This document shows positions 4,025 to 15,790 of a stretch of DNA of 64,000 nt, in pieces (position 1 is the stretch's first letter; each line of letters opens with the position of its first letter). The notes below the pieces were generated by a model. The model saw nothing but the letters and a program-made list of their open reading frames with translations, was not told where the DNA came from and did no database searches. A program made the position numbers and the translations under genes. Source of the stretch: a virus; the IMG/VR virus record IMGVR_UViG_3300046558_000178, positions 2,552-66,551 of that record; one strand, written 5' to 3'.

Positions 4025-4272
4025 GTGACCTCCTTTGCGGCTGCCCGCCTAACCCTGTCCCACGTTTTCTGGTTCATCAGCAGCACGGCGCCGCCGTTCA
4101 GACTGATGACTTGGCCGTCGGGAACGGTCTCCCAGTAGCCGAAGAAATCAGCCATCCACGCATTTGTCTTAGCGACCAGTTCAGGGTCTTGTATCCGCGC
4201 AAACTCAGGGCTGCACTGCATGCGTGGGCGCGCGGGCGAGATCTGGACCTTTGCCCCGAAGATTGAGGTCAT
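4021..4272 (-). CDS. Hypothetical phage protein
   Basis: 83-aa ORF coupled to neighbours. Confidence 0.65.
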   Translation of the reverse strand: MTSIFGAKVQISPARPRMQCSPEFARIQDPELVAKTNAWMADFFGYWETVPDGQVISLNGGAVLLMNQKTWDRVRRAAAKEVT

Positions 4273-4682
4273 GCTGCCCTCCGCTTCGGCGCCGCCGGCA
4301 GGTCCATCCAGGCCACAACCAGCGCCGATTCGATTGGCGTTGCATCGGCGTATCGCCAGACATCACCGTCACGGACGCCGGGCCACACTTCCTCATCCGA
4401 GAGCGCGAGCAGCACCAGGATATCGTCGTCCGGGAGGCGGTCGGCGACAGATGTCCAGCCGGTGGGCACCGAGCTGCGCAAGTCAGCGGTGGTGCCAATG
4501 CCGTCCAGCGCTTCGATTTCTTCCGTGGTCATGCCTATGCAGGCATTCCAGCACGCGGCTAGGCGTCGGGCGTCATCCCTCCTCATGCTAGCGGCGACAA
4601 TCATGCCCTTTGCACTGTTGATGTCGCAAGAATACTGCCAGACGGTCACATGCAGCCGCCCCTGGGTGTGCTGGCCGCTCAT
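4269..4682 (-). CDS. DUF551-like protein
   Basis: DARRLAACWNAC; WTSVADRLP...VVAWMDLPAAP motif; ATG overlaps rdgC stop. Confidence 0.7.
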   Translation of the reverse strand: MSGQHTQGRLHVTVWQYSCDINSAKGMIVAASMRRDDARRLAACWNACIGMTTEEIEALDGIGTTADLRSSVPTGWTSVADRLPDDDILVLLALSDEEVWPGVRDGDVWRYADATPIESALVVAWMDLPAAPKRRAA

Positions 4683-5947
4683 GATGCCGCTCCCGGCGCC
4701 GCCGCCATGTTGCGCACGCCCTTGGTCATCGCCGGCGCAGCGCTGTCCTCGCTTGCTTCTTCCATGTTGACGTAGGCGGCCAGCAGATGCATCTGGCGGT
4801 TGGTGTCGTATGTTGCCGTGCACAAGCTTGTTAAGGCACCCAGGTCGCTTACGCCGAGCTTGGCTGCTTCTGACTTGATCTCAGCACCCAGTTCGGCCAT
4901 GCGGCCAGCGAATTTATCGCCGAGGAGCGTCTGGGCGGCCGTATGCGCCTCGTACATCTTGGCTGCCACTTCCACCGTCCGGCGCGCTTTGCCGACGGTG
5001 CCGCCCAGTGCCAGCACCGTTTCGCCGCGTGTTGCGGGCGCAGGCTTCGCAACCGGTGCCGCGCCGTCCACCTCGCCACCCATCGCCTGCACCACATCAG
5101 CCAGCATCTTCGCCAGCTCGCCGGTCATCAGCGCAAAGTCGCCGTCGAAGCGCTCGTCGTCGTTGCGGGCGCTCTTGTTTTCCGTCAGCACGTCCAGCGC
5201 CCTGATCGACTTGATGGCCAGCGACTCGTCCAGCACAAAGCTGATCTTCGATTCCCAGGTCATCGCCAGGCGCGTGCACTGCTTGCCGGCGGCGATGTGT
5301 CGGCGTACGTCGTCCGCTTCCAGTGTGTGGCGCACGTACTTGACCTGGGCGCGGCTTTCGCCGGTGGCGCGCATGGTCGCATCGCGGTCGACCGTGAAGC
5401 CGGCCGGGGACTCGTCTGCTTGCAGCCATTCGGTCATCACACCCACCGGTGATCGCTGCACGCGCAGGCTTTCCAGCGGCATGCGGTCGACCGCCTTCAG
5501 CAGCAGCTTGATTACTTCATCGGCCTTACCCGGGCTGGCAGCGTCTACGACCAACCAGCCGTTGATCGGGTCGATCCAGACGGCCGTAGTGCTGGCGACG
5601 GAAAACGCCTTCGGCAGCAGTTCATCTGCTACGCGCTCGCGCAGTTCCTTCATGGCCTTCTTGCCGGGCGCGAAGCCTTGCGCTTCTTCCAGCTCGGCGC
5701 CGCGGGCCTTAGCCACCTGGTTGATAACGGTGGCGGGCAGCAGCTTCTTTTCGGTCTGAAGCTGAAGCAGCCATTGGCGGTTGACTACGTGGACCAGGTC
5801 GGCGCCGCGCGGTGCGGCCCAGCCTTGGCGCAACAGTTCGTTGCTGCTGGCGGGCGTGAAGGCGTGCGGCGCCAGGGCGGCGATCATCTGCTCGGCGGAA
5901 AACGCCCAGCCGGCGGGCACGCGGTATATTTGAGCGTTTTTGAACAT
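4679..5947 (-). CDS. rdgC: Recombination-associated protein RdgC with C-terminal extension
   Basis: MFKNAQIYR...EKKLLPATVI...ELLPKAF...FDGDFALMTGEL. Confidence 0.9.
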   Translation of the reverse strand: MFKNAQIYRVPAGWAFSAEQMIAALAPHAFTPASSNELLRQGWAAPRGADLVHVVNRQWLLQLQTEKKLLPATVINQVAKARGAELEEAQGFAPGKKAMKELRERVADELLPKAFSVASTTAVWIDPINGWLVVDAASPGKADEVIKLLLKAVDRMPLESLRVQRSPVGVMTEWLQADESPAGFTVDRDATMRATGESRAQVKYVRHTLEADDVRRHIAAGKQCTRLAMTWESKISFVLDESLAIKSIRALDVLTENKSARNDDERFDGDFALMTGELAKMLADVVQAMGGEVDGAAPVAKPAPATRGETVLALGGTVGKARRTVEVAAKMYEAHTAAQTLLGDKFAGRMAELGAEIKSEAAKLGVSDLGALTSLCTATYDTNRQMHLLAAYVNMEEASEDSAAPAMTKGVRNMAAAPGAAS

Positions 5948-6679: not shown

Positions 6680-7975
6680 TTATTTGGTGGCAGATCTGAT
6701 GGATGGTCCGGTATGGCTGAACATTGCTTTGTAGGAGGAGAGCGCCTGGCTGCGGTCATACCCGCCGACCTCATGCTGGCGCAGGCGCTGGTGGTACCGC
6801 CGCCGGCCGTAGGCGCCGACGGAGACATGGTTTGGCCAGACGACGTAGCCGAGGAAGGGCACGCCGTCGGACACCGGTGCCAGGCGCACCTTTTTCGGAT
6901 GGATGGTCAGACCGTCGGCTGCCAGGCGCTCGACGATTGCGGCACTGATCGCCATCAGCTGCTCGCGGGATTCGCCCACGATCACCATGTCGTCCACGTA
7001 CCGGACGTAGTGGCGAACGCGCAGCACTTCCTTCACCCAATGGTCGAAATCGTTCAAGTAGACGTTTGCGAAAAGCTGGCTGCTCAAGTTTCCGATGGGC
7101 ATCCCCTTGTCCCGGGTGCGCCGATAGACGCTCGTGGCCGGGAATAAGTGATCATGCTCATCGCCCGACCGGAACGAGTCCACCAGGCTCACCAACAGCG
7201 TGCGGATGTCCTGGTCGCCGATGTAGCGCAGGACCCGCGCCTTCAAGAGAGAATGATTCACCGAATAGAAATACTTCGAAATGTCCAGCTGCAATACCCA
7301 CTTCGCATCCCGCGCGCGGGCGAAGCCGGCCACCCGGCGCACCGCAGCGTGCGTGCCGCGGCCCGGCAGGTTGCCGTATGTGTCCGCGATAAAGCGCGGC
7401 TGCCAGATTGGCAGCATGTAGTCGTAAAGCATCCAGTGGACGATTCGGTCCTTCATCGGCGCATCCACGACGTGGCGGAACTTCTTCTCGCGCACCACGA
7501 ACGTCTTGTACGGCCCGAAGGTGTACCGGCGTTCGCGCAGCTGCTGCTGGATGCTGGCAAGGTAGCGGAGTGGATCGTCGCCGAAGCGCTGCACGCGCGG
7601 GCTCTTGGACTTGTTTTTCCTGGCTTTCAGCCAGCAGCCGAACAGGCTGGACAGGTCGGTCATGCGGTGGAACTGTGCTGGCGCTGGGCCGCTTTCCGCT
7701 GCGGCACTCGGAAGCCCCGCAGCGGTCTTCGGTTTGGCGCTGGGCCGTGCTTTCGGGTTTATCCCAGGAGCTGATCGACCAAGAATTGGCTTTCCGTGAG
7801 CGGGCTCAGCGTCTAAGCATATAATTTTTGGGTCAGCGGAAGCCGACATTGTCGTTGGCGTTGGACGGATTCGCGTTGTTGAGCCTGAACACGCCGGCGT
7901 TGTCGCCGTCGTTCCAGTAGCCGCCGCGGATGAGCGCATTGCCGGACCTACCAGACCACCCCCTTCGTTGATCAT
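6680..7975 (-). CDS. DGR reverse transcriptase (start uncertain: 7975 or 7663)
   Basis: KARKNK, KDRIVHW, RGTHAA, LQLDISKYFYSVNH, GMPIGNLSSQLFAN (DGR-type SQ motif), YVRYVDD, FLGY; no maturase or endonuclease domain. Confidence 0.95.
   Translation of the reverse strand: MINEGGGLVGPAMRSSAAATGTTATTPACSGSTTRIRPTPTTMSASADPKIICLDAEPAHGKPILGRSAPGINPKARPSAKPKTAAGLPSAAAESGPAPAQFHRMTDLSSLFGCWLKARKNKSKSPRVQRFGDDPLRYLASIQQQLRERRYTFGPYKTFVVREKKFRHVVDAPMKDRIVHWMLYDYMLPIWQPRFIADTYGNLPGRGTHAAVRRVAGFARARDAKWVLQLDISKYFYSVNHSLLKARVLRYIGDQDIRTLLVSLVDSFRSGDEHDHLFPATSVYRRTRDKGMPIGNLSSQLFANVYLNDFDHWVKEVLRVRHYVRYVDDMVIVGESREQLMAISAAIVERLAADGLTIHPKKVRLAPVSDGVPFLGYVVWPNHVSVGAYGRRRYHQRLRQHEVGGYDRSQALSSYKAMFSHTGPSIRSATK
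7833..7949 (-). repeat. DGR template repeat (TR)
   Basis: 117 nt matching both VRs; nine AAY codons; ends TTCCGCTGACCC (IMH*-like). Confidence 0.95.
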
Positions 7976-8826
7976 GATGCTGCCTTTCCGGCGCGCAGCA
8001 GGCCGCCGACCAGGCGGCCAAGCTCAACGGCTAAGCCAGCGCGATGGTCGAACGCAAGTTTGAGCTTGCTTAGCCGTGGAGCCTGGGTCAGGTAGTGCTT
8101 GAGCAGATCGATGTCGGCCGAGATGGAGTGCAGCACCGCCCGGCGGTCCGCCGCTGTCCCGTAGGCGTAGACGTTGCCCATGACACGTGCCATGCACGCG
8201 CGCACGTTCTCGCCGAAGGTGGCGCGCAGGTCGCGTGGCATCTTGATGATGTCGTGCAGCAGCTGCGTGTCCAGGTCCTGGGCTTGTGTCTTCAGCTTAA
8301 AGCCGGCGCTGTCGGGGTTGGCCAGCATCTGTTTCGTCGCAGCCTGGTTGACCTCACCTCGGGCTCGCAGGTCTGCGATCACTTGCTGAACAATTTTGTC
8401 GGAGACTGCATTGAGCACTGAAGCATTGGCGCCGGCCTGGTCGGAAACGTAAAGCGTGTAGCCTTCGGCGCGGCTGCCGAGGTAGACCACGTACGGAATC
8501 TGGAATTCTTCCACCATGGACCACAGCCGCTTTTTGAAATTCCCGGCGGGGAAGCCCACGCGAATGTGTGGCGCGTCGCTGGTATTGACCAGTTTCAGCT
8601 GGTAGCCCTTGAGGGTATTGAGTGCGTGCGCGGTGCGATCGTAGCCGTGCAGGAAGCGGCCGACTTGCACCAGTACGAGGTGGCCGGGATGCTTCTGCTC
8701 CAGCTGGGCCGAGACGTCGGCCATCGGATCTTCCTGGCCAAGGCCGACCTCGATTCCACGATATGCGCGAATCGAGAACTGGCCCATCTCGGCCTGTGTC
8801 GGCACTTGCGATTCGGTTTTCGGCAT
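7972..8826 (-). CDS. DGR accessory protein: MutS-domain-I-like N-terminus fused to Avd-like helical bundle
   Basis: KHPGHLVLVQVGRFLHGYDRTA...VGFP resembles MutS-I; KMPRDLRATFGENVR...ELGRLVGGLLR resembles Avd; sits between target and TR. Confidence 0.8.
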   Translation of the reverse strand: MPKTESQVPTQAEMGQFSIRAYRGIEVGLGQEDPMADVSAQLEQKHPGHLVLVQVGRFLHGYDRTAHALNTLKGYQLKLVNTSDAPHIRVGFPAGNFKKRLWSMVEEFQIPYVVYLGSRAEGYTLYVSDQAGANASVLNAVSDKIVQQVIADLRARGEVNQAATKQMLANPDSAGFKLKTQAQDLDTQLLHDIIKMPRDLRATFGENVRACMARVMGNVYAYGTAADRRAVLHSISADIDLLKHYLTQAPRLSKLKLAFDHRAGLAVELGRLVGGLLRAGKAAS

Positions 8827-8851
8827 TTTCGTCCTGCCTATTCAATATTGA

Positions 8852-8907
8852 GAGGCCCGGTCACCGCTGCGCAGTGACCGGGAACCAGTGACCTGGGACC
8901 AGAGACC
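8852..8907 (-). other. Post-VR1 heptamer tract and hairpin (DGR target-recognition element)
   Basis: CCCGGTCACTGC-GCA-GCGGTGACCGGG stem-loop at 8856-8882. Confidence 0.8.
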
Positions 8908-9677
8908 TACAGGGGTTTGGTGCAGCGGAAGCCGACAAGGTCGTAGGCGTAGGACGGAGACGCGTGGTCGAGCCTGAACACGCCGGCGTAGTCGCCGTCG
9001 CCCCAGTAGCCGCCGCGGATGAGCGCAGTGCCGGACCAGTTGGCGCCGGCACGAGGCCGCCAGCCCATGCCACGTTCCATGGACGCATACGGCGCCGTGG
9101 CGATCGACGGCGAGTCGGCGGCAAAGGCCTGCGAGATCAGGCCATTGGCGTCGCCCTGGACGTCATCGAAGACCCAGGTAAAGGCGTTGCCTGCAGCGTC
9201 CACCACGGTCTGGTCGTCATCCAGGTAGAAGGCGCGGCGCTCGGAAGGGTCACGTGAAACGAAATCGCCGGCGTACGGTTCATCAACGTCGTCCAGGTCG
9301 AGGCGCAGGCCTTGGAACATGCTGCCCTCGCCGACGATTCCACTGACCCAGTTCGCCCGCTGCAGGAACAAGTTGAACGCCAGCGACAGCGCCTGGGTCT
9401 CGGTGATCAGCGCGAAGCCGGCATCGGCGCAGGCCTGGCGCGCATCGGAGTAGTTGATATCGACCCAGGGCTTGCCGGTGGCGCTTACAACAGCTTTGCC
9501 GTCTGCACCCTCCGAGCACAGGTACTGGCCGGCTTGGAAGGCTGGTACGACAATGCTCGGGCGCGTAACCACGCCTCCGACAATCACGCACGGCAGCGTG
9601 GTTTCGGGCACGGTGACGAACAGGTTTTTCTCGATTTCCGCTACTGCGTGCTGCTCGGTATGGGTTGCTGTGTTCAT
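8907..9677 (-). CDS. DGR target 1, CLec/FGE-sulfatase-fold protein
   Basis: PWVDINYSDARQAC, AGNAFTW, LIRGGYW...VGFRC; VR at C-terminus. Confidence 0.92.
   Translation of the reverse strand: MNTATHTEQHAVAEIEKNLFVTVPETTLPCVIVGGVVTRPSIVVPAFQAGQYLCSEGADGKAVVSATGKPWVDINYSDARQACADAGFALITETQALSLAFNLFLQRANWVSGIVGEGSMFQGLRLDLDDVDEPYAGDFVSRDPSERRAFYLDDDQTVVDAAGNAFTWVFDDVQGDANGLISQAFAADSPSIATAPYASMERGMGWRPRAGANWSGTALIRGGYWGDGDYAGVFRLDHASPSYAYDLVGFRCTKPL
8922..9038 (-). repeat. Variable repeat VR1
   Basis: 12 internal differences from TR (plus one at each edge), all at TR adenines. Confidence 0.95.
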
Positions 9678-9770
9678 GATGCTCCTTGGATGGGTGTAAG
9701 GACTTCAACTTGCTGCTGGATCGAACTGCGGGCGAGGATCAGGGCGGCTCGCCTGTGTAATTCACTCGAA

Positions 9771-9974
9771 TCATTTCGGCTCCTTCGGCCTTGGCGCGCG
9801 CCGCGCGTCGGCCAGCATGCGGTCCGCGACAGCCTGCAGACGGTCGCGGTCTTCAACCGCCGATTCGTTGGCGCGAAAACTCTTGCTGGACCGCAGGCTG
9901 GACCTCGTTCGGCACTGGCGCACTGCAGCTCGATCCAGGCGTGCCAGTCGTTGTTCCTCGGTTTCGGTTTGCAT
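9771..9974 (-). CDS. Small basic hypothetical protein
   Basis: 67-aa ORF, GGAGG RBS. Confidence 0.5.
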   Translation of the reverse strand: MQTETEEQRLARLDRAAVRQCRTRSSLRSSKSFRANESAVEDRDRLQAVADRMLADARRAPRPKEPK

Positions 9975-10076
9975 GCGCCCTCCGCAGCAATTTGGCGGCC
10001 CGCGCCGTAGCGCTGGCCAATCGGATTGAATGGCTGAATGTGTGGCCGGCGCACCAAGTGCTCCAGGCCGAGCGGA

Positions 10077-10220
10077 TTACGGATGCCATGCCGCATTCAC
10101 TTCCTGCAGGGCGACCAGCACCTGCTGCTGCGCCTCGTCATCGCTGCGCGCGGCATCTACATAGAACAGCCCCAGCAGGCTAAAGGCGGCGAGGACGCGG
10201 ATCCATGGGCGCCAGCTCAT
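10077..10220 (-). CDS. Small TM/secreted protein
   Basis: MSWRPWIRVLAAFSLLGLFYV; ATGA coupling. Confidence 0.45.
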   Translation of the reverse strand: MSWRPWIRVLAAFSLLGLFYVDAARSDDEAQQQVLVALQEVNAAWHP

Positions 10221-10360
10221 GGCAGACTCGCGATGGCGGCGCCGACCACATCGGCCAGCCATTCAGCCAGCGCGAGCAGCAGCATCACGGCCGTGATCAG
10301 GACGCTGCCGTTGCGCTCGCACCAGCCGCCGCGCGCTCCGAACACGATCCGCGCGCTCAC
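10217..10360 (-). CDS. Small membrane protein (not in ORF track)
   Basis: GTG start overlapping upstream stop; VLITAVMLLLALAEWLA hydrophobic stretch. Confidence 0.45.
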   Translation of the reverse strand: MSARIVFGARGGWCERNGSVLITAVMLLLALAEWLADVVGAAIASLP

Positions 10361-10590
10361 GACACAACTCCCGACCGGCCCGCCAACTGCATAGCGCCAC
10401 AGCGGAAGTAGTCATCCGCGCGGTGAGCGCCTGCAGGCATTTGCTCCGGCGCGTCCAGGCTACCGTCGTTCAGGACGGATTCGAGTCCGCTGTCCTGGTA
10501 GCGGAAGTGCAGCTGGTCGCTTACACGCAACCGGGAGTTCCTTCCACCGGTGGCGAGGCGCAGCTTTGAAGCGTGGTTTGCGTGCATCAC
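10357..10590 (-). CDS. Hypothetical protein
   Basis: 77-aa ORF with AGGAG RBS. Confidence 0.55.
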   Translation of the reverse strand: MMHANHASKLRLATGGRNSRLRVSDQLHFRYQDSGLESVLNDGSLDAPEQMPAGAHRADDYFRCGAMQLAGRSGVVS

Positions 10591-10602
10591 GATCTCCTGG
10601 TG

Positions 10603-10752
10603 CTAACGTGAGCGAACATTGGGCGTGCCGATCAGGCCCCAGCCGAGCTGGCGGCGAACTTCTTCAGGCGCTGGTGGCGGCAGGCGGGACAGTAAGCGCT
10701 GCTTTGTCCAGATGCGGACTTGCTCTTTGGTTGGGTGATTAACTGTTGCCAT
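10603..10752 (-). CDS. 49-aa protein with PPP-x-EEVRRQLGW motif
   Basis: MATVNHPTKEQVRIW...LPPPAPEEVRRQLGWGL; GGAG RBS; paralog at 26032. Confidence 0.7.
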   Translation of the reverse strand: MATVNHPTKEQVRIWTKQRLLSRLPPPAPEEVRRQLGWGLIGTPNVRSR

Positions 10753-10769
10753 GACTATCTCCAAGGAAT

Positions 10770-10818
10770 GGCCGCCGCTGCGCGGTGGCCGGTTACCCGT
10801 GACCTGGGGCCAGAGACC
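10770..10818 (-). other. Post-VR2 heptamer tract and hairpin
   Basis: GGCCACCGC-GCA-GCGGCGGCC at 10770-10790, same spacing from stop codon as at VR1. Confidence 0.75.
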
Positions 10819-11729
10819 TACAGGGTTTTGGTGCAGCGGAAGCCGACAAAGTCGACGGCGTAGGACGGAGTCGCGTAGCCGAGCCTGAACACGCCGGCGA
10901 CGTCGCCGTCGTTCCAGTAGCCGCCGCGGATGAGCGCACCGCCGGACCAGTCGCGGGCCCCGTCAGGGCGCCAGCCCATGCCGAACTGGCCAGAGGCGTA
11001 TGGGGCGACGATCAGGGATGGGGAGTCGTCAGCGAGGCGCGTGCACAGGCCATTGCTGTCGCCCTGGACGTCGTCGGAGGTCCAGGTGTAGATGTTGCCG
11101 GCTAGGCCGTAGACCTTTTCGCCGTTGGTCAGCACGTGCCAGCTGCGTTCTTCGGGATCATCACTCACGTAGTCAGCCGTCTGTGCGCTGCGCACCGTGC
11201 CCTTGTGCAGCCCCTGGAAGACCTTGCCGATGCCGACGGCGCCACCGGTCCAGTTTTCGGCCTGCTGGACTACATGCAGACGGATGGCAAGCTCCTGTGA
11301 CTCGCGCGCCAGCTCGTAGCCGACCGCCGAGCACGCAGCTGCTGCAGCGTTGAAGTTCACGTTCACCCATGGCTTCGCCGAGGCGCTCAGCTGGAGCGCA
11401 CCGTTATCGTCTTTCGACGCGGGGTACTTGGCGTATTTGAAGGCGGGAACGATGCGACCATTCGGCAGCAACGTCTCAGGCACGGTGACGAAGTGCTCGT
11501 CGGAGACCAGGCCCAGGTTGGACATCAGCGAGGGCGATCCGGACACGACGCGCTTCTCGGCGTCGAGAACGATCAGATGCAGGCCGGATGTGGCATGGCG
11601 GAACTTGGTGAAGCCCTCCCAGGCGCTTTCCACGGCCAGGCCGGTGATATTGCGGTCGTTCAGGCGCGCAGTGAAGGTGCGCTCCTCGATCAGTTCCAGT
11701 GCTGCAGGTTGGTTCATCGCTGTCTCCAT
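10818..11729 (-). CDS. DGR target 2, CLec/FGE-sulfatase-fold protein with extra N-terminal domain; first gene after pL
   Basis: Paralog of target 1 (FVTVPET, KPWV, FQGL, LAGNIYTW, LIRGGYW...VGFRC). Confidence 0.92.
   Translation of the reverse strand: METAMNQPAALELIEERTFTARLNDRNITGLAVESAWEGFTKFRHATSGLHLIVLDAEKRVVSGSPSLMSNLGLVSDEHFVTVPETLLPNGRIVPAFKYAKYPASKDDNGALQLSASAKPWVNVNFNAAAAACSAVGYELARESQELAIRLHVVQQAENWTGGAVGIGKVFQGLHKGTVRSAQTADYVSDDPEERSWHVLTNGEKVYGLAGNIYTWTSDDVQGDSNGLCTRLADDSPSLIVAPYASGQFGMGWRPDGARDWSGGALIRGGYWNDGDVAGVFRLGYATPSYAVDFVGFRCTKTL
10833..10949 (-). repeat. Variable repeat VR2
   Basis: 13 internal differences from TR (plus one at each edge), all at TR adenines. Confidence 0.95.
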
Positions 11730-11753
11730 CGGGTGATTGCTGCGTCGATGAAG

Positions 11754-11800
11754 ATATTAAACACCATGTTTAAAACTAATGCAAACACTATGTTTAAAAA
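11754..11800 (-). promoter_or_regulatory. pL/oL: two AAACA-N3-TGTTT operators overlapping TTGCAT-17-TTTAAT
   Basis: AAACACCATGTTT 11759-11771 and AAACACTATGTTT 11783-11795; near copy at oR. Confidence 0.8.
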
Positions 11801-11835
11801 GATGCGATTTTTTGCAAAACCGGGGCAGTGAGGCG

Positions 11836-11860
11836 AAAAAAAAGCCCGCGCGAGGCGGGC
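11836..11860 (-). terminator. Intrinsic terminator of cI transcript
   Basis: GCCCGC-CTCGC-GCGGGC followed by T8 on minus strand. Confidence 0.8.
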
Positions 11861-11923
11861 GTGGCACGGGGTGACGAATTAAGGCGACGCCAGCCGGTGG
11901 GAGGTAAGTTGTCTGCGCGTCAT

Positions 11924-12175
11924 CTATTGCGGCCCGGCGCTCCGAGCTGCCAGTATGCCGCGGTCAAACGCGCTGGAAGTTTGCGGCTCTGATTCTATGA
12001 ATGACCGCTCCGTAGGATCGGCTTTATTCCAATAGGCCATGCCCGCCTGGAAATGTGCTTCTTGTCGCGCGGCATGCCATTTCGAAAAAAATGAAAGCGG
12101 CTTAGTGGATGGGCCGTCTGCGCAACTGGGTGAACTGAGATCGGGCCCGGCGTTTATGTTGAAAGCCTTCTTCAT
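11924..12175 (-). CDS. Hypothetical immunity-region protein
   Basis: 83-aa ORF with GAGG RBS between cI and terminator. Confidence 0.55.
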   Translation of the reverse strand: MKKAFNINAGPDLSSPSCADGPSTKPLSFFSKWHAARQEAHFQAGMAYWNKADPTERSFIESEPQTSSAFDRGILAARSAGPQ

Positions 12176-12253
12176 GACGTGCCCTCAAATAGTAATAGAT
12201 GAGCTAACATATTAATGGACAATTGTTACTGGAAAACTATCCAATTGTTGCAC

Positions 12254-12964
12254 TCATATACGATCTGATTCCTTGCGGACTACGCGGCCGACGATGATGC
12301 ATTCTCCATTGCGGCACCGCTTGCGTGAGTACATGCGCTGGTCGGAGTTATCCGAAACCAGCCACCAGTCTCCCTGGTCGCGTACCAGGCGCTTGATCAC
12401 CGCCTCGCCCTCATAGTTGAACGCGTACACGGCGCCATCCTCCATACGCGTGTCAGCCGTGTTCACGATGACATGGTCGCCCTCGTAGAGGTTCGGCTCC
12501 ATGCTTTCGCCTCTCACCGATAGGGCGATGAGCTTCGCAGGGTAGTAGCCGTTACGGTCCACCCAGTACTTCGGCACGCTTTGCCGGCCGCCCTCGCGGT
12601 TATCAGGGGAGGTTTGGAATCCGGTGATGCCGGCTTGCAGCTGCAGCTTCACTTTCTGGATTTGATAGAAACCAGGGTCGCCATCTTCCGCGACCACCAC
12701 GGGGATGTAGTTGGCCAAGCCTGGCCCGACCATGTCGCCCACGCCATCGCGAAGCCAGATGGCATTGCACCCGATCACCTCCTGCGCGCTGAGCAACCCA
12801 TCGCTGGAGATGCCGCGCACCTCCCAGTTGTTCACCGTCTGCGGAGACACATTTAACAATTTGGCGACCGCACTTTGTCCTTCTGCATGGCGCAGCTCGG
12901 CAGCGGCCTGATAGAGGCGCGTCATTTGTGGGTGCATACCAACCCCATTCTCAGTATTTTTCAT
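12254..12964 (-). CDS. cI: CI-like repressor (HTH + S24 peptidase)
   Basis: QSAVAKLLNVSPQTVNNW HTH; VRGESMEP and VIKRL catalytic motifs; start codon approximate. Confidence 0.92.
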   Translation of the reverse strand: MKNTENGVGMHPQMTRLYQAAAELRHAEGQSAVAKLLNVSPQTVNNWEVRGISSDGLLSAQEVIGCNAIWLRDGVGDMVGPGLANYIPVVVAEDGDPGFYQIQKVKLQLQAGITGFQTSPDNREGGRQSVPKYWVDRNGYYPAKLIALSVRGESMEPNLYEGDHVIVNTADTRMEDGAVYAFNYEGEAVIKRLVRDQGDWWLVSDNSDQRMYSRKRCRNGECIIVGRVVRKESDRI

Positions 12965-12985
12965 AGCCTCAATGATCCCTGAACT

Positions 12986-13040
12986 AAACAAAATGTTGTT
13001 AAACATAGTGTTTGCGTTTTTCTTAAACATGGTGTGTAAT
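12986..13040 (+). promoter_or_regulatory. pR/oR: three AAACA-N3-TGTTT-like operators, TTGCGT-17-TGTAAT
   Basis: Sites at 12986-12998, 13001-13013, 13025-13037 between divergent cI and cro. Confidence 0.8.
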
Positions 13041-14304: not shown

Positions 14305-14511
14305 ATGCTACCACAGCAGCCGACTCCAAGCCCCCGAGCCAGCACGCCAACTGAGCGAATTATCAAAAGCGTCTTCGATTGGCGCAACAAGGACAAGGAC
14401 GCCATCGCGGCGAAGGGTGACCGCGATGCGCAGCGTGCGGAGTACCGCGCGCGCAACGAAATGCGCGAGGCGGTTGATGTCGCGCAACGCAAACAGGGTG
14501 ACCAGCCATGA
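14305..14511 (+). CDS. Hypothetical protein
   Basis: GAGG RBS; ATGA-coupled to next gene. Confidence 0.6.
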   Translation: MLPQQPTPSPRASTPTERIIKSVFDWRNKDKDAIAAKGDRDAQRAEYRARNEMREAVDVAQRKQGDQP

Positions 14512-14873
14512 CGGGCCGCCCAAACCCAATTCCGCTGGAGCAGGCCCTCGATATGGTCGAAGCCTTCGTGCGTGCACGCCGGCAAGTGAGGTTGGCCGAT
14601 CTGGCTGCCGCCATGGACCTGGGCATCAGCACCGTTCGGCACTATGCACGCGAGCTGGAACTCGATGGCCGGCTGCACAAGGTCAAACCATTCGGCGTAG
14701 GCCTGCCGCGCAGCGCCGTATGGGCAGCAGGGCCGGCGCCATTTGTCGAAGAACCTGCCGAGCACGAGGCCGTCCACGTCATGGTGCAGAAATGGAAGGC
14801 TGGGCCGACGCGTACCAGCTGGCTGGAAGCGCATTTCTTCGGCCGCGTTGCTGCGCATGGAGCACGGGCATGA
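14508..14873 (+). CDS. Winged-HTH protein
   Basis: LADLAAAMDLGISTVRHYARELELDGRL. Confidence 0.7.
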   Translation: MTGRPNPIPLEQALDMVEAFVRARRQVRLADLAAAMDLGISTVRHYARELELDGRLHKVKPFGVGLPRSAVWAAGPAPFVEEPAEHEAVHVMVQKWKAGPTRTSWLEAHFFGRVAAHGARA

Positions 14874-15790
14874 AGGCCATTGACCTATTCTCCGGCGCGG
14901 GCGGATTCTCGACCGGCGCTCGCATGGCCGGAATCGACGTGGTGTGGGCAGCCAATCACTGGCCGGCCGCCGTCGCGATCCACTCGCAGAACCACCCTGG
15001 CGCCGCCCACCTGTGCCAGGACCTGCACCAGGCAAACTGGCTTGACGTGCCCGCGCACGACATCCTGCTGGCGTCACCCTGCTGCCAGGGTCACAGCAAG
15101 GCGCGCGGCAAGGCCAGCGGCAACCCGCAGCACGACGCCAGCCGGTCCACCGCATGGGCCGTCGTCTCGGCCGCCGAATACCACCGGCCCGCCTTCGCCG
15201 TCATCGAGAACGTGCCCGAGTTCACGCGCTGGGCGCTTTACCCGGCCTGGTGCGCGGCGATGGGTGCCCTAGGCTATGCGCTGACGCCCATGATCGTCGA
15301 CGCCGCCGACCACGGCGCGCCCCAGCATCGCGAACGCCTTTTCATCGTCGCGGTCCGAGCCAAGCATCCGCTGATGATTCACTTGGATAAGCGCGCGTAT
15401 GTCCCGGCCAGCAGCTTCATCGACTTCGGCGTCGGCAAGTGGTCGCTGGTCGACAAGCCGGGTCGCGCCGCCGCGACGCTGCGCCGGGTCCAGGCAGGCC
15501 GCCGCGCGCACGGGAATCGCTTCGTCATGCCGTACTACGGTGGCGGGTCCGGCCTGACGGGTCGCTGCCTAAGCAGGCCACTGGGCACGATCACCACCCG
15601 CGACCGTTGGGGTGTTGTCGACGGCGACCGCACGCGCATGCTCACCACTCAGGAGTGCCGCGCCGCGATGGGTTTCCCCGATGACTACATCCTGCCGGCG
15701 GCGCACCGCGATGCTGTTCACATGCTCGGTAACGCCGTTTGCCCGCCGCCCGCGCGGGACGTCATCACAGCTATGTTGGAGGCAGCATGA
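14870..15790 (+). CDS. C5 DNA cytosine methyltransferase
   Basis: DLFSGAGG, SPCCQGHS, ENVPEF, PQHRER, LGNAV motifs. Confidence 0.93.
   Translation: MKAIDLFSGAGGFSTGARMAGIDVVWAANHWPAAVAIHSQNHPGAAHLCQDLHQANWLDVPAHDILLASPCCQGHSKARGKASGNPQHDASRSTAWAVVSAAEYHRPAFAVIENVPEFTRWALYPAWCAAMGALGYALTPMIVDAADHGAPQHRERLFIVAVRAKHPLMIHLDKRAYVPASSFIDFGVGKWSLVDKPGRAAATLRRVQAGRRAHGNRFVMPYYGGGSGLTGRCLSRPLGTITTRDRWGVVDGDRTRMLTTQECRAAMGFPDDYILPAAHRDAVHMLGNAVCPPPARDVITAMLEAA

Follow-up and report, generated by a model that had tools for sequence, protein, structure and literature searches.

The closest described counterpart of the element reported here is the target site of BPP-1-type diversity-generating retroelements (DGRs), which consists of a (GC)14 and initiation of mutagenic homing (IMH) segment followed by a hairpin or cruciform. 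In the account of Guo et al. (2011, PMC3240598), the DGR stem-loop has 7-10 bp and a sense-strand GRNA tetraloop and lies 4-34 bp from the variable repeat (VR); in BPP-1 itself the spacer is 4 bp long and its sequence is unimportant. A second point of comparison is the mini-hairpin motif GCGNAGC or GCGNNAGC, which the review of Hirao (PMC13037366) places at primase-dependent phage origins and N4 promoters and describes as extraordinarily stable as DNA, far less stable as RNA, and a poor ligand of single-stranded DNA-binding protein (SSB). The present analysis concerns a stretch of viral DNA of 64,000 nucleotides, called the window below (positions 2,552 to 66,551 of the IMG/VR record IMGVR_UViG_3300046558_000178, and most of this 66.5-kb record). 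It holds a complete DGR on the minus strand, with two target genes, an accessory gene, a template repeat (TR) and the gene for a reverse transcriptase (RT). Both VRs are followed by a ladder of 7-nt units that runs in register into a hairpin with a GCA loop. We tentatively interpret this tract as the downstream half of the signal that marks the target site of an active DGR.

The features that make up the tract in the window are as follows.

8873..8907, minus strand: heptad ladder 1, GGTCTCT GGTCCCA GGTCACT GGTTCCC GGTCACT; it begins at the G of the TAG stop codon, and its last heptad is also the 5' arm of hairpin 1.
8856..8882, minus strand: hairpin 1, CCCGGTCACTGC gca GCGGTGACCGGG; the stem has 12 bp, one of them a T.G wobble, the loop is a GCA triloop, and the mini-hairpin top reads GCGCAGC.
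10784..10818, minus strand: heptad ladder 2, GGTCTCT GGCCCCA GGTCACG GGTAACC GGCCACC; its last heptad is also the 5' arm of hairpin 2.
10770..10790, minus strand: hairpin 2, GGCCACCGC gca GCGGCGGCC; a 9-bp stem with one sense-strand A.C mismatch and a GCGCAGC top.

The heptads read as an earlier note on this DNA had written them, the five units being continued by GCGCAGC GGTGACC after VR1 (8907-8859) and by GCGCAGC GGCGGCC after VR2 (10818-10770), with the shared GC-GCA-GC top present in both copies and the ladder in register with it. The TR lacks the tract, as that note also stated: it diverges from both VRs past ...GCTG(AC/CA)CCAAA and is followed by neither ladder nor hairpin. The similarity between the VR1 and VR2 paralogues (85% over 213 nt) stops exactly at the hairpin 3' end, at 8859 and 10770. 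When both strands of the 64-kb window were scanned for GG at no fewer than six of seven positions spaced 7 nt apart, starts were found only at 8907, 8900 and 10818 of the minus strand and none on the plus strand. Tandem Repeats Finder reported the VR1 tract with a period of 14 (2.6 copies, score 53) and did not report that of VR2.

The tract occupies the same place as the BPP-1-type site, immediately 3' of the VR and with no counterpart after the TR, and shares with it a GC-rich stem (9-12 bp in the clade described below), a sense-strand loop bounded by G and A, and a flexible distance from the VR. The inverted repeat is of the kind described by Guo et al.; its stem begins about 33 nt beyond the point where TR homology ends, which is the upper end of the 4-34 bp that they give. 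The four-nucleotide GRNA loop of BPP-1-type sites is not found, however. The loops in the window are the 3-nt GCA, and the clade has mostly a pyrimidine at position 2, while the G...A frame is retained. The mini-hairpin motif, with a C-G closure and a sheared G.A frame, is present as GCGCAGC in both window copies. The hairpin is the known DGR target stem-loop in the mini-hairpin form GCG(N)NAGC. Its stem sequence is largely fixed in the clade, while that of BPP-1-type sites is free, and the spacer is a conserved heptad array of 28-35 nt in place of 4 bp of unimportant sequence (PMC3240598). The ladder also resembles iterons and other tandem protein-binding repeats, which are likewise short direct repeats with fixed spacing, with fixed and free positions, beside a structural element. 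Unlike iterons, its 7-nt period does not match the helical repeat of duplex DNA, and the array is probably read as single-stranded DNA.

Relatives of the locus were gathered as 29 viral loci through the accessory protein, 6 through target protein 1 and 60 through the RT (mostly 65-94% identical), together with 24 bacterial loci found with a profile of the N-terminal domain of the accessory protein, which are prophages of Duganella, Undibacterium, Thauera, Aromatoleum and other Betaproteobacteria. A search of genome contigs with target protein 1 alone gave no match. In the viral loci and the window, the VR-end (IMH-like) motif was sought with at most two mismatches, and the GC...GC closure of the hairpin was imposed by the search. 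This gave 127 distinct sites, 91 of which are then followed by a GC-N3/4-GC hairpin. Most of the other 36 are chance motif matches within genes, but four are genuine VR ends that have a ladder and a different loop, and in two the ladder is degenerate. One spurious row was removed from the 91, and the remaining 90 distinct VR ends were analyzed.

In 82 of these 90 VR ends, at least three of the last four heptads, taken in the register of the loop, match GGTC.C. at four or more of the five positions; in 64 all four do so. The run is four heptads long in 64 VR ends and five in 20. Five rows lie out of register (L033 twice, L035:2785, L071 and L072). Among 82 distinct spacers the autocorrelation at lag 7 is 0.574, compared with 0.268 in shuffled sequences (z 33, which overstates the independence of these related sequences), and at lag 14 it is 0.563. 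The heptads have distinct consensus sequences by position along the ladder, namely GGTCTCT, G[GA]TC[AC]CT, GGTCNC[GC] and GGTC[GA]C[CTG]; for the module as a whole they can be summarized as GGTCTCT / GRTCNCT / GGTCNCN / GGTCRCY, of which the last is also the hairpin 5' arm. For 70 sequences of less than 85% identity, the ladder has an information content of 1.36 bits per position and the 3' arm of the hairpin one of 1.58; the corresponding values are 0.18 for the 30 nt that follow and 0.38 for the linker that joins IMH to ladder. This linker is variable, from 0 to 14 nt. The distance from IMH to loop, 31-46 nt, is not quantized, and therefore ladder and hairpin form one module on a flexible tether. 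The target stop codon is either a TAG ahead of the ladder or a TGA inside it (TCTCTGATC). Because the stop codons fall before or inside the ladder, its conservation does not come from coding.

The ladder module is present in 23 of the 24 betaproteobacterial prophage loci and occurs in a diverged form in the 24th. In the most distant locus, L286 (a contig of a Burkholderiaceae metagenome-assembled genome, positions about 4200-4290, N-domain 39% identical), it reads AGACTCT AGGCCCT GGACCCT AGACCCT and is followed by a hairpin GCAGGGGC-aaa-GCCCCTGC. The earlier note had proposed that homologous DGRs be inspected for the periodicity, and both the periodicity and its register with the hairpin were found in them. 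The module is a conserved block across the whole phage and prophage DGR clade, found after VRs and never after the TR, and it did not come about by chance through a single duplication. Heptads compared inside the same sequence show no greater similarity than those compared between sequences (z -0.6 to 1.3). Concerted evolution, or ongoing slippage among the heptads, was considered and rejected on this lack of a within-sequence excess of similarity. A G-quadruplex formed by GG every 7 nt was rejected too, since heptad 3 starts with GA in 42 of the 90 VR ends and the arrays of other lineages have no GG.

The hairpin shows a clear preference of strand. Of 738 stem cells from 82 distinct hairpins, 622 are Watson-Crick pairs; sense-strand G.T accounts for 102, A.C (equivalent to G.T on the antisense strand) for 6 and other combinations for 8. 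At least one G.T is found in 49 of 55 distinct stems, and the share of G.T is about 14% of stem cells in this clade compared with about 4-5% in two other DGR sets, where the counts of G.T against A.C are 8 to 4 and 10 to 2, equal in direction and weaker. Because sense-strand G.T outnumbers A.C by 102 to 6, the hairpin is selected on the sense strand only. A cruciform formed on both strands fits this poorly, as the antisense hairpin would hold the mismatches. The bias speaks for a sense-strand hairpin and against a symmetric cruciform, in which the clade differs from BPP-1-type sites.

The claim of the earlier note that the stem arms change roughly in compensation between VR1 and VR2 stands in part. 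There is one true double change (T-A to C-G) and one change from T.G to C-G; a third change, from A-T to A.C, breaks a pair. The covariation that the note proposed to look for is seen more broadly in the clade, with double changes at five of the nine pairs. Stem cells are paired in 97.4% of cases for 42 sequences, against 92.4% after shuffling (none of 500 shuffles reached the observed value), and slid controls gave 25-64%. As single-stranded sense DNA, the VR1 sequence folds with -16.3 kcal/mol (z -3.29 against 200 shuffles); the fold of VR2, -11.4 kcal/mol, is no better than that of its shuffles (z 0.08). The RNAalifold consensus contains the hairpin as the sole helix and leaves the ladder unpaired. 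Pairing of the 3' arm with upstream heptads in other registers was considered and rejected, since the free positions mismatch in most sequences and RNAalifold keeps the ladder unpaired. The loops of the clade carry G..A in 82 of the 90 VR ends (GNA in 44, GNNA in 38, for example GTAA, GTCA and GTGA); with the closure imposed by the search, the top reads as one or the other form of the mini-hairpin motif. The high stability of GNA triloops in single-stranded DNA, stated in the earlier note, agrees with published work (PMC13037366, PMC3201870).

Patterned spacers were also found in DGRs outside the clade. In set B (80 loci with Cruim01-like RTs, L103-L182), spacers of about 30 nt are AT-rich in GC-rich phages, have a period of 4, 8 or 12, for example TTATTGATTAATTCGCTTATTTAAT, and directly precede a CCGGCCG-cttg-CGGCCGG hairpin after each VR. 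Set C is a diverse group of 80 loci with RTs 24-50% identical to the query. Its 21 non-redundant spacers contain 51 repeated 4-mers against 42.2 ± 2.9 in shuffled sequences (3 of 500 shuffles reached this number), and equal lengths of sequence after the TR have no such excess (35 against 38.1). In 6 of the 21 spacers the repeats are spaced by 7, 8, 14 or 15 nt, with arrays such as TAATCTG-GGTTCTG-...-TAATCTG and AACTG-CCCACTG-CGTAACTG-CGCACTG standing directly before a GATA-looped hairpin. In L185-L191 and L203-L211, which have a short bAvd, repeats of TAATCTG/TTCTG or AACTG with 7-8-nt spacing end 0-2 nt before a hairpin with a GATA or GGTA loop; a plain short bAvd was found in 8 of 9 such array-bearing elements tested. 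The L093 lineage was rejected as an example, as its ATCTG repeats lie inside a coding region and are not clean. Periodic arrays before the target hairpin are thus recurrent, not universal, and not tied to a MutS-like domain. Because such arrays also accompany a plain short Avd, the MutS-like part of the accessory protein described below is dispensable for them.

The module belongs to a temperate lambda-like siphovirus, with integrases, an S24/CI-type repressor, and terminase, capsid, tape-measure and gpJ-like genes. The remaining parts of the DGR are listed here.

6680..7700, minus strand: RT gene; Pfam RVT_1, E 1e-24; the listed open reading frame extends to 7975 and overlaps the TR, so the true start is uncertain.
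7827..7948, minus strand: TR; the spacer RNA region comes next, with neither ladder nor target hairpin.
7972..8826, minus strand: accessory gene, 284 aa; the part from about residue 29 to 133 is similar to the mismatch-binding domain I of MutS, and residues ~175-284 form an Avd four-helix bundle.
8907..9677, minus strand: target gene 1, 256 aa, a paralogue of target 2 with VR1 as its 3' end; PHROG 2889 and 9572; Pfam FGE-sulfatase at E 0.051 only.
8916..9037, minus strand: VR1; its 3' end TTCCGCTGCACCAA (8917-8930) is an IMH-like boundary, with TTCCGCTGACCCAA as the TR counterpart.
10818..11729, minus strand: target gene 2, 303 aa, C-type-lectin/FGE-sulfatase-like, with VR2 as its 3' end; Pfam FGE-sulfatase, E 1.1e-4 (below the curated cut-off); PHROG 2889 and 9572.
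10827..10948, minus strand: VR2; repeat family D1, 88% identity to the TR.

Over a core of 114 nt with 24 TR adenines, VR1 has 12 mismatches to the TR and VR2 has 13, all of them at TR adenines and 0 elsewhere. In the three close relatives whose loci hold a TR, it is identical to that of the window at 137, 137 and 136 of 137 nt, and the differences of their VRs from the window are all at TR adenines. In L004, whose fetched stretch is without a TR, 1 or 2 of 14-20 VR differences are not at adenines. Because the mismatches to the TR and the VR differences among relatives fall at TR adenines, the DGR is, by this signature, active on both targets. The VR sequence TTCCGCTGCACCAA and its TR counterpart TTCCGCTGACCCAA are the putative IMH and IMH*, and VR/TR homology stops there. 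In a tblastn comparison with phage DGR RTs, 161 records matched the RT of the window, every one with less than 60% identity; for the 40 that were listed the identity is 23.6-35.9%. No annotated close relative was found among deposited phages, as none of the 40 of 161 records listed has an RT above 36% identity.

Several further observations concern this region. The DGR is part of the early region, where the CI/S24-type repressor gene (12254-13030) is on one side of it and an RdgC-like gene (4679-5947) on the other; the tail genes are far away, and both of its targets are small C-type-lectin-like proteins (256 and 303 aa) and not tail fibers. Downstream of the TR (7690-7730, in plus coordinates) the DGR RNA has a hairpin CCGCTGCGG...CCGCAGCGGAA, the 3' arm of which is complementary to the IMH core TTCCGCTGC, over 9 nt for the VR and 8 for the TR; the motif complementary to the IMH is also found in the spacer RNA of L005, L006, L022, L023, L028-L030 and L035, and it fits the proposed pairing between primer RNA and IMH. 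A terminator-like hairpin GCCCGCCTCGCGCGGGC followed by eight T stands upstream of target gene 2 (11844-11860, minus strand) and is covered by a sub-threshold Rfam match to 'Trp leader'. An open reading frame of 49 codons (10602-10751, minus strand) has its ATG at 10751, preceded by GGAG, 18 nt past hairpin 2. A C-5 cytosine DNA methylase gene is located at 14417-15790 (plus strand), and CCWGG, GGWCC, GATC and CCCGGG sites occur in the ladders.

The accessory protein is the Avd fusion that the earlier note supposed, with a MutS-domain-I-like N-terminus and an Avd C-terminus, as judged from PHROG, Foldseek and VIA-align comparisons. Its Avd part matches PHROG 3206 ('Avd protein of DGR') with E 3.4e-5, and Pfam bAvd only with E 0.0097, below the cut-off. 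In the AlphaFold model (mean pLDDT 76.6), the predicted Avd part is similar to 4dwl_C, with a VIA-align Z of 14.8 and a root-mean-square deviation (rmsd) of 1.8 Å over 107 aa. The modeled N-domain is matched by Foldseek to 1ewq_B with E 1.6e-3 and probability 1.00, and its predicted fold is similar by VIA-align to 3thy_B (MSH3; Z 11.3, rmsd 2.6 over 99 aa) and 1ewq_B (Taq MutS; Z 11.0). Pfam MutS_I gave no match to the protein at E up to 5. The fusion is found in 52 of 57 loci of the RT clade and in 0 of 167 loci of other DGR lineages, and a profile search with the N-domain collected 64 proteins, short stand-alone MutS-like ones included.

The motif GRFLHGYD of the accessory protein is represented by G.FYH or G.FYE at that place in distantly related MutS-like (MSL) proteins. 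At the putative position of the Phe-X-Glu motif of MutS, the protein of the window has Phe-Leu-His. Phe58 is near-invariant and His60 invariant in 22 sequences, and Phe58 may be the counterpart of the Phe that MutS inserts at a mismatch. Described MSL accessory genes resemble the present protein in their MutS-domain-I-like fold and their co-occurrence with Avd, and in the passages of Wu et al. (2018, PMC5758913) they are said always to accompany avd. They are described as stand-alone genes, while in the window the MutS-like part and Avd form one polypeptide.

These results allow us to propose, tentatively and with somewhat less than even confidence, that the ladder may be a single-stranded docking array for an oligomer of the Avd type, which is close to the recognition element for an oligomeric Avd fusion suggested in the earlier note. 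The module would act as single-stranded sense DNA, exposed when the coding strand of the target is the lagging-strand template; this would be the strand to which the antisense cDNA must anneal. The mini-hairpin would resist melting and coating by SSB, and would in this way mark the site and keep it open. The ladder could then serve as a sequence-specific docking array with roughly one heptad per Avd-type subunit, Avd in this clade being fused to a MutS-domain-I-like reader of DNA distortion. Docking would bring the particle of RT, Avd, RNA and cDNA beside the IMH. We favor a docking array because the fixed and free positions recur with a period better matched to an extended single strand than to a duplex, because a lineage-specific ladder is expected if it co-evolves with a reader encoded by the DGR, and because DNA binding is known for no DGR protein other than Avd and, in this clade, the fused MutS-like domain. 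Avd is described as a basic homopentamer that binds DNA, RNA and RT (PMC5758913). Editing by BPP-1 is favored if the lagging-strand template is the strand that can pair with the cDNA, and the same study from 2026 suggests that the stem-loop prolongs the open state (PMC12875486). The bias toward a sense-only hairpin fits the lagging-strand preference of BPP-1 from an independent direction.

Several points weigh against a docking array. The binding of nucleic acids by Avd is described as being without detectable sequence specificity (PMC5758913). A single phage, L006, has VRs with four and with five heptads, which is a poor fit to a strict pentamer with one heptad per subunit. The co-occurrence of ladder and fusion is confounded by common descent, as they form one clade, and the ladder-like arrays of other lineages have different units and accompany a plain short Avd. 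BPP-1 works with a 4-bp spacer of indifferent sequence (PMC3240598), and a ladder is thus no universal requirement. Finally, the abundant G.T pairs of the stem would equally suit an RNA hairpin.

The arrays of the other lineages suggest a wider form of the docking proposal, which we consider doubtful. Sense-strand repeat arrays of 7-8 nt in register with the hairpin, with a lineage-specific unit (GGTCNCN, TAATCTG, AACTG and others), might be a general third cis element of DGR targets beside the IMH and the hairpin, read by pentameric Avd with about one unit per subunit on the single-stranded lagging-strand template.

The same mini-hairpin and repeats could instead serve re-priming, which we regard as unlikely. 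The mini-hairpin would be an SSB-excluding signal like that of primase-dependent single-strand origins and the ladder a set of primase start trinucleotides (CTG of the DnaG type, GTC of the T7 type); with a primer made just 3' of the IMH, the annealed RNA-cDNA would be joined quickly to the nascent strand. Counted on the sense strand of 42 non-redundant ladders, CTG occurs 81 times and GTC 88 times, against 14 CAG and 7 GAC. Most sequences have CTG or CTA at the two 5' heptad junctions, and the TAATCTG, TTCTG and AACTG arrays of other lineages, with units 7-8 nt apart, immediately precede the hairpin. The start sites of gammaproteobacterial DnaG are d(CTG) and d(CTA) (PMC2978363), and that of T7 primase is d(GTC) (PMC12839067). 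Mini-hairpins GCGAAAGC and GCGTTAGC are found at the G4, St-1 and alpha3 primase origins (PMC13037366); with these and ssiA the module shares an identical GCGCAGC-type top, a phage context, DNA expected to be single-stranded, and primase-type trinucleotides nearby. The preference of BPP-1 editing for the lagging-strand template (PMC12875486) would also agree. However, primase sites need neither a strict 7-nt spacing nor fixed GGTC positions, the spacers of the Pseudomonas-type clade (set B) are AT-rich and have no CTG or CTA, and no primase was found among 35 open reading frames of the phage. In G4 the primer start site lies 3' of the hairpin, while the CTGs of the ladder lie 5' of it. The module further differs from G4-type origins in being tied to the target of a retroelement, and nothing in it suggests an origin function. 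Overexpression or weakening of DnaG left BPP-1 editing unchanged, a result that its authors deem inconclusive (PMC12875486).

The resemblance of the N-domain to proteins that bind mismatches and insertion loops (MSH3 in MutSbeta-loop complexes and Taq MutS, with the Z values given above) raises the question whether the ladder is read as distorted duplex. Unwound heptads would re-anneal out of register and give a 7-nt loop-out or mismatched duplex, to be read, together with the G.T pairs of the stem, by the MutS-domain-I-like part. The frequency of G.T in this clade and the Phe retained in the family motif G-x-F-[YL]-[HE], probably the one that MutS inserts at a mismatch, agree with this. Neighboring heptads differ at their variable positions, however, and would make poor out-of-register duplexes. 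The Glu of Phe-X-Glu would be replaced by His, ladder-like arrays also occur without a MutS-like domain, and the evidence comes from a single clade. We hold this reading to be improbable.

Hairpin and ladder might also act in the target mRNA, as a 3' stabilizer, a processing site or a means of translational coupling, and be unrelated to homing. The sense-only bias and the many G.U-compatible pairs would suit such a role, and the module is located within transcribed intergenic space. However, neither hairpin is terminator-like: neither is among the three terminator-like sites in 7700-12300, and their tails GGGCCTCTCAAT and ATTCCTTGG have no T-run. The module stands after every VR whichever gene comes next, and never after the TR. 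A scan against Rfam found no family that matches the module, with only two sub-threshold chance matches elsewhere. GCG(N)NAGC tops are much more stable as DNA than as RNA (PMC13037366), and the homologous position in BPP-1 is a proven homing element at the DNA level (PMC3240598). An mRNA element is accordingly quite improbable.

The heptads could, lastly, be a neutral relic, that is, decayed slippage copies of the 5' arm of the hairpin kept by descent or as a spacer of suitable length. All heptads resemble this arm (GGTCRCY), the copy number of four or five varies even inside one phage, and the period of 14 in VR1 is that of a duplication. This reading has difficulty with the information content of the ladder, which exceeds that of its flanks across lineages with accessory proteins only 52-65% identical. 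GGTCTCT, the heptad at the greatest distance from the hairpin, is one of those with the highest conservation, and no excess of similarity within sequences is seen. We consider a relic very improbable. Pairing of the ladder with the DGR spacer RNA still attached to the cDNA, an extension of the primer RNA-IMH pairing proposed for BPP-1 by Naorem et al. (PMC5703328) that could draw on the complementarity of the spacer RNA (...GCAGCGGAA) to the IMH core, is highly improbable and was rejected, as RNAduplex found the ladder to pair with the 260 nt downstream of the TR no better than shuffled ladders (mean z -0.11, n=80), no complementary periodic array occurs on either strand of the window, and the VRs of one phage differ at the free heptad positions.

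No description of a periodic spacer was found in the DGR literature, in which the available passages of Guo et al. (2011) hold no mention of one and the supplements of Guo et al. (2011) and Wu et al. (2018) lay outside the search. The hairpin is a variant of an element already described, while the heptad ladder in register with it and the bias toward the sense strand seem to be new. The cis elements known so far are the IMH and the stem-loop, and to these the clade adds a sharply bounded and strongly conserved periodic element. It also provides evidence, from comparison, that the need for the stem-loop is confined to the sense strand. The route of the mutagenized cDNA to and into its target is still called unknown in the study from 2026 (PMC12875486). 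If arrays of this kind are indeed read by Avd, such reading would be the missing step in target finding by the particle of RT, Avd, RNA and cDNA. If the ladder is a docking site, it would provide a rule for designing or predicting DGR targets, remote ones included, and for porting DGRs as mutagenesis tools.

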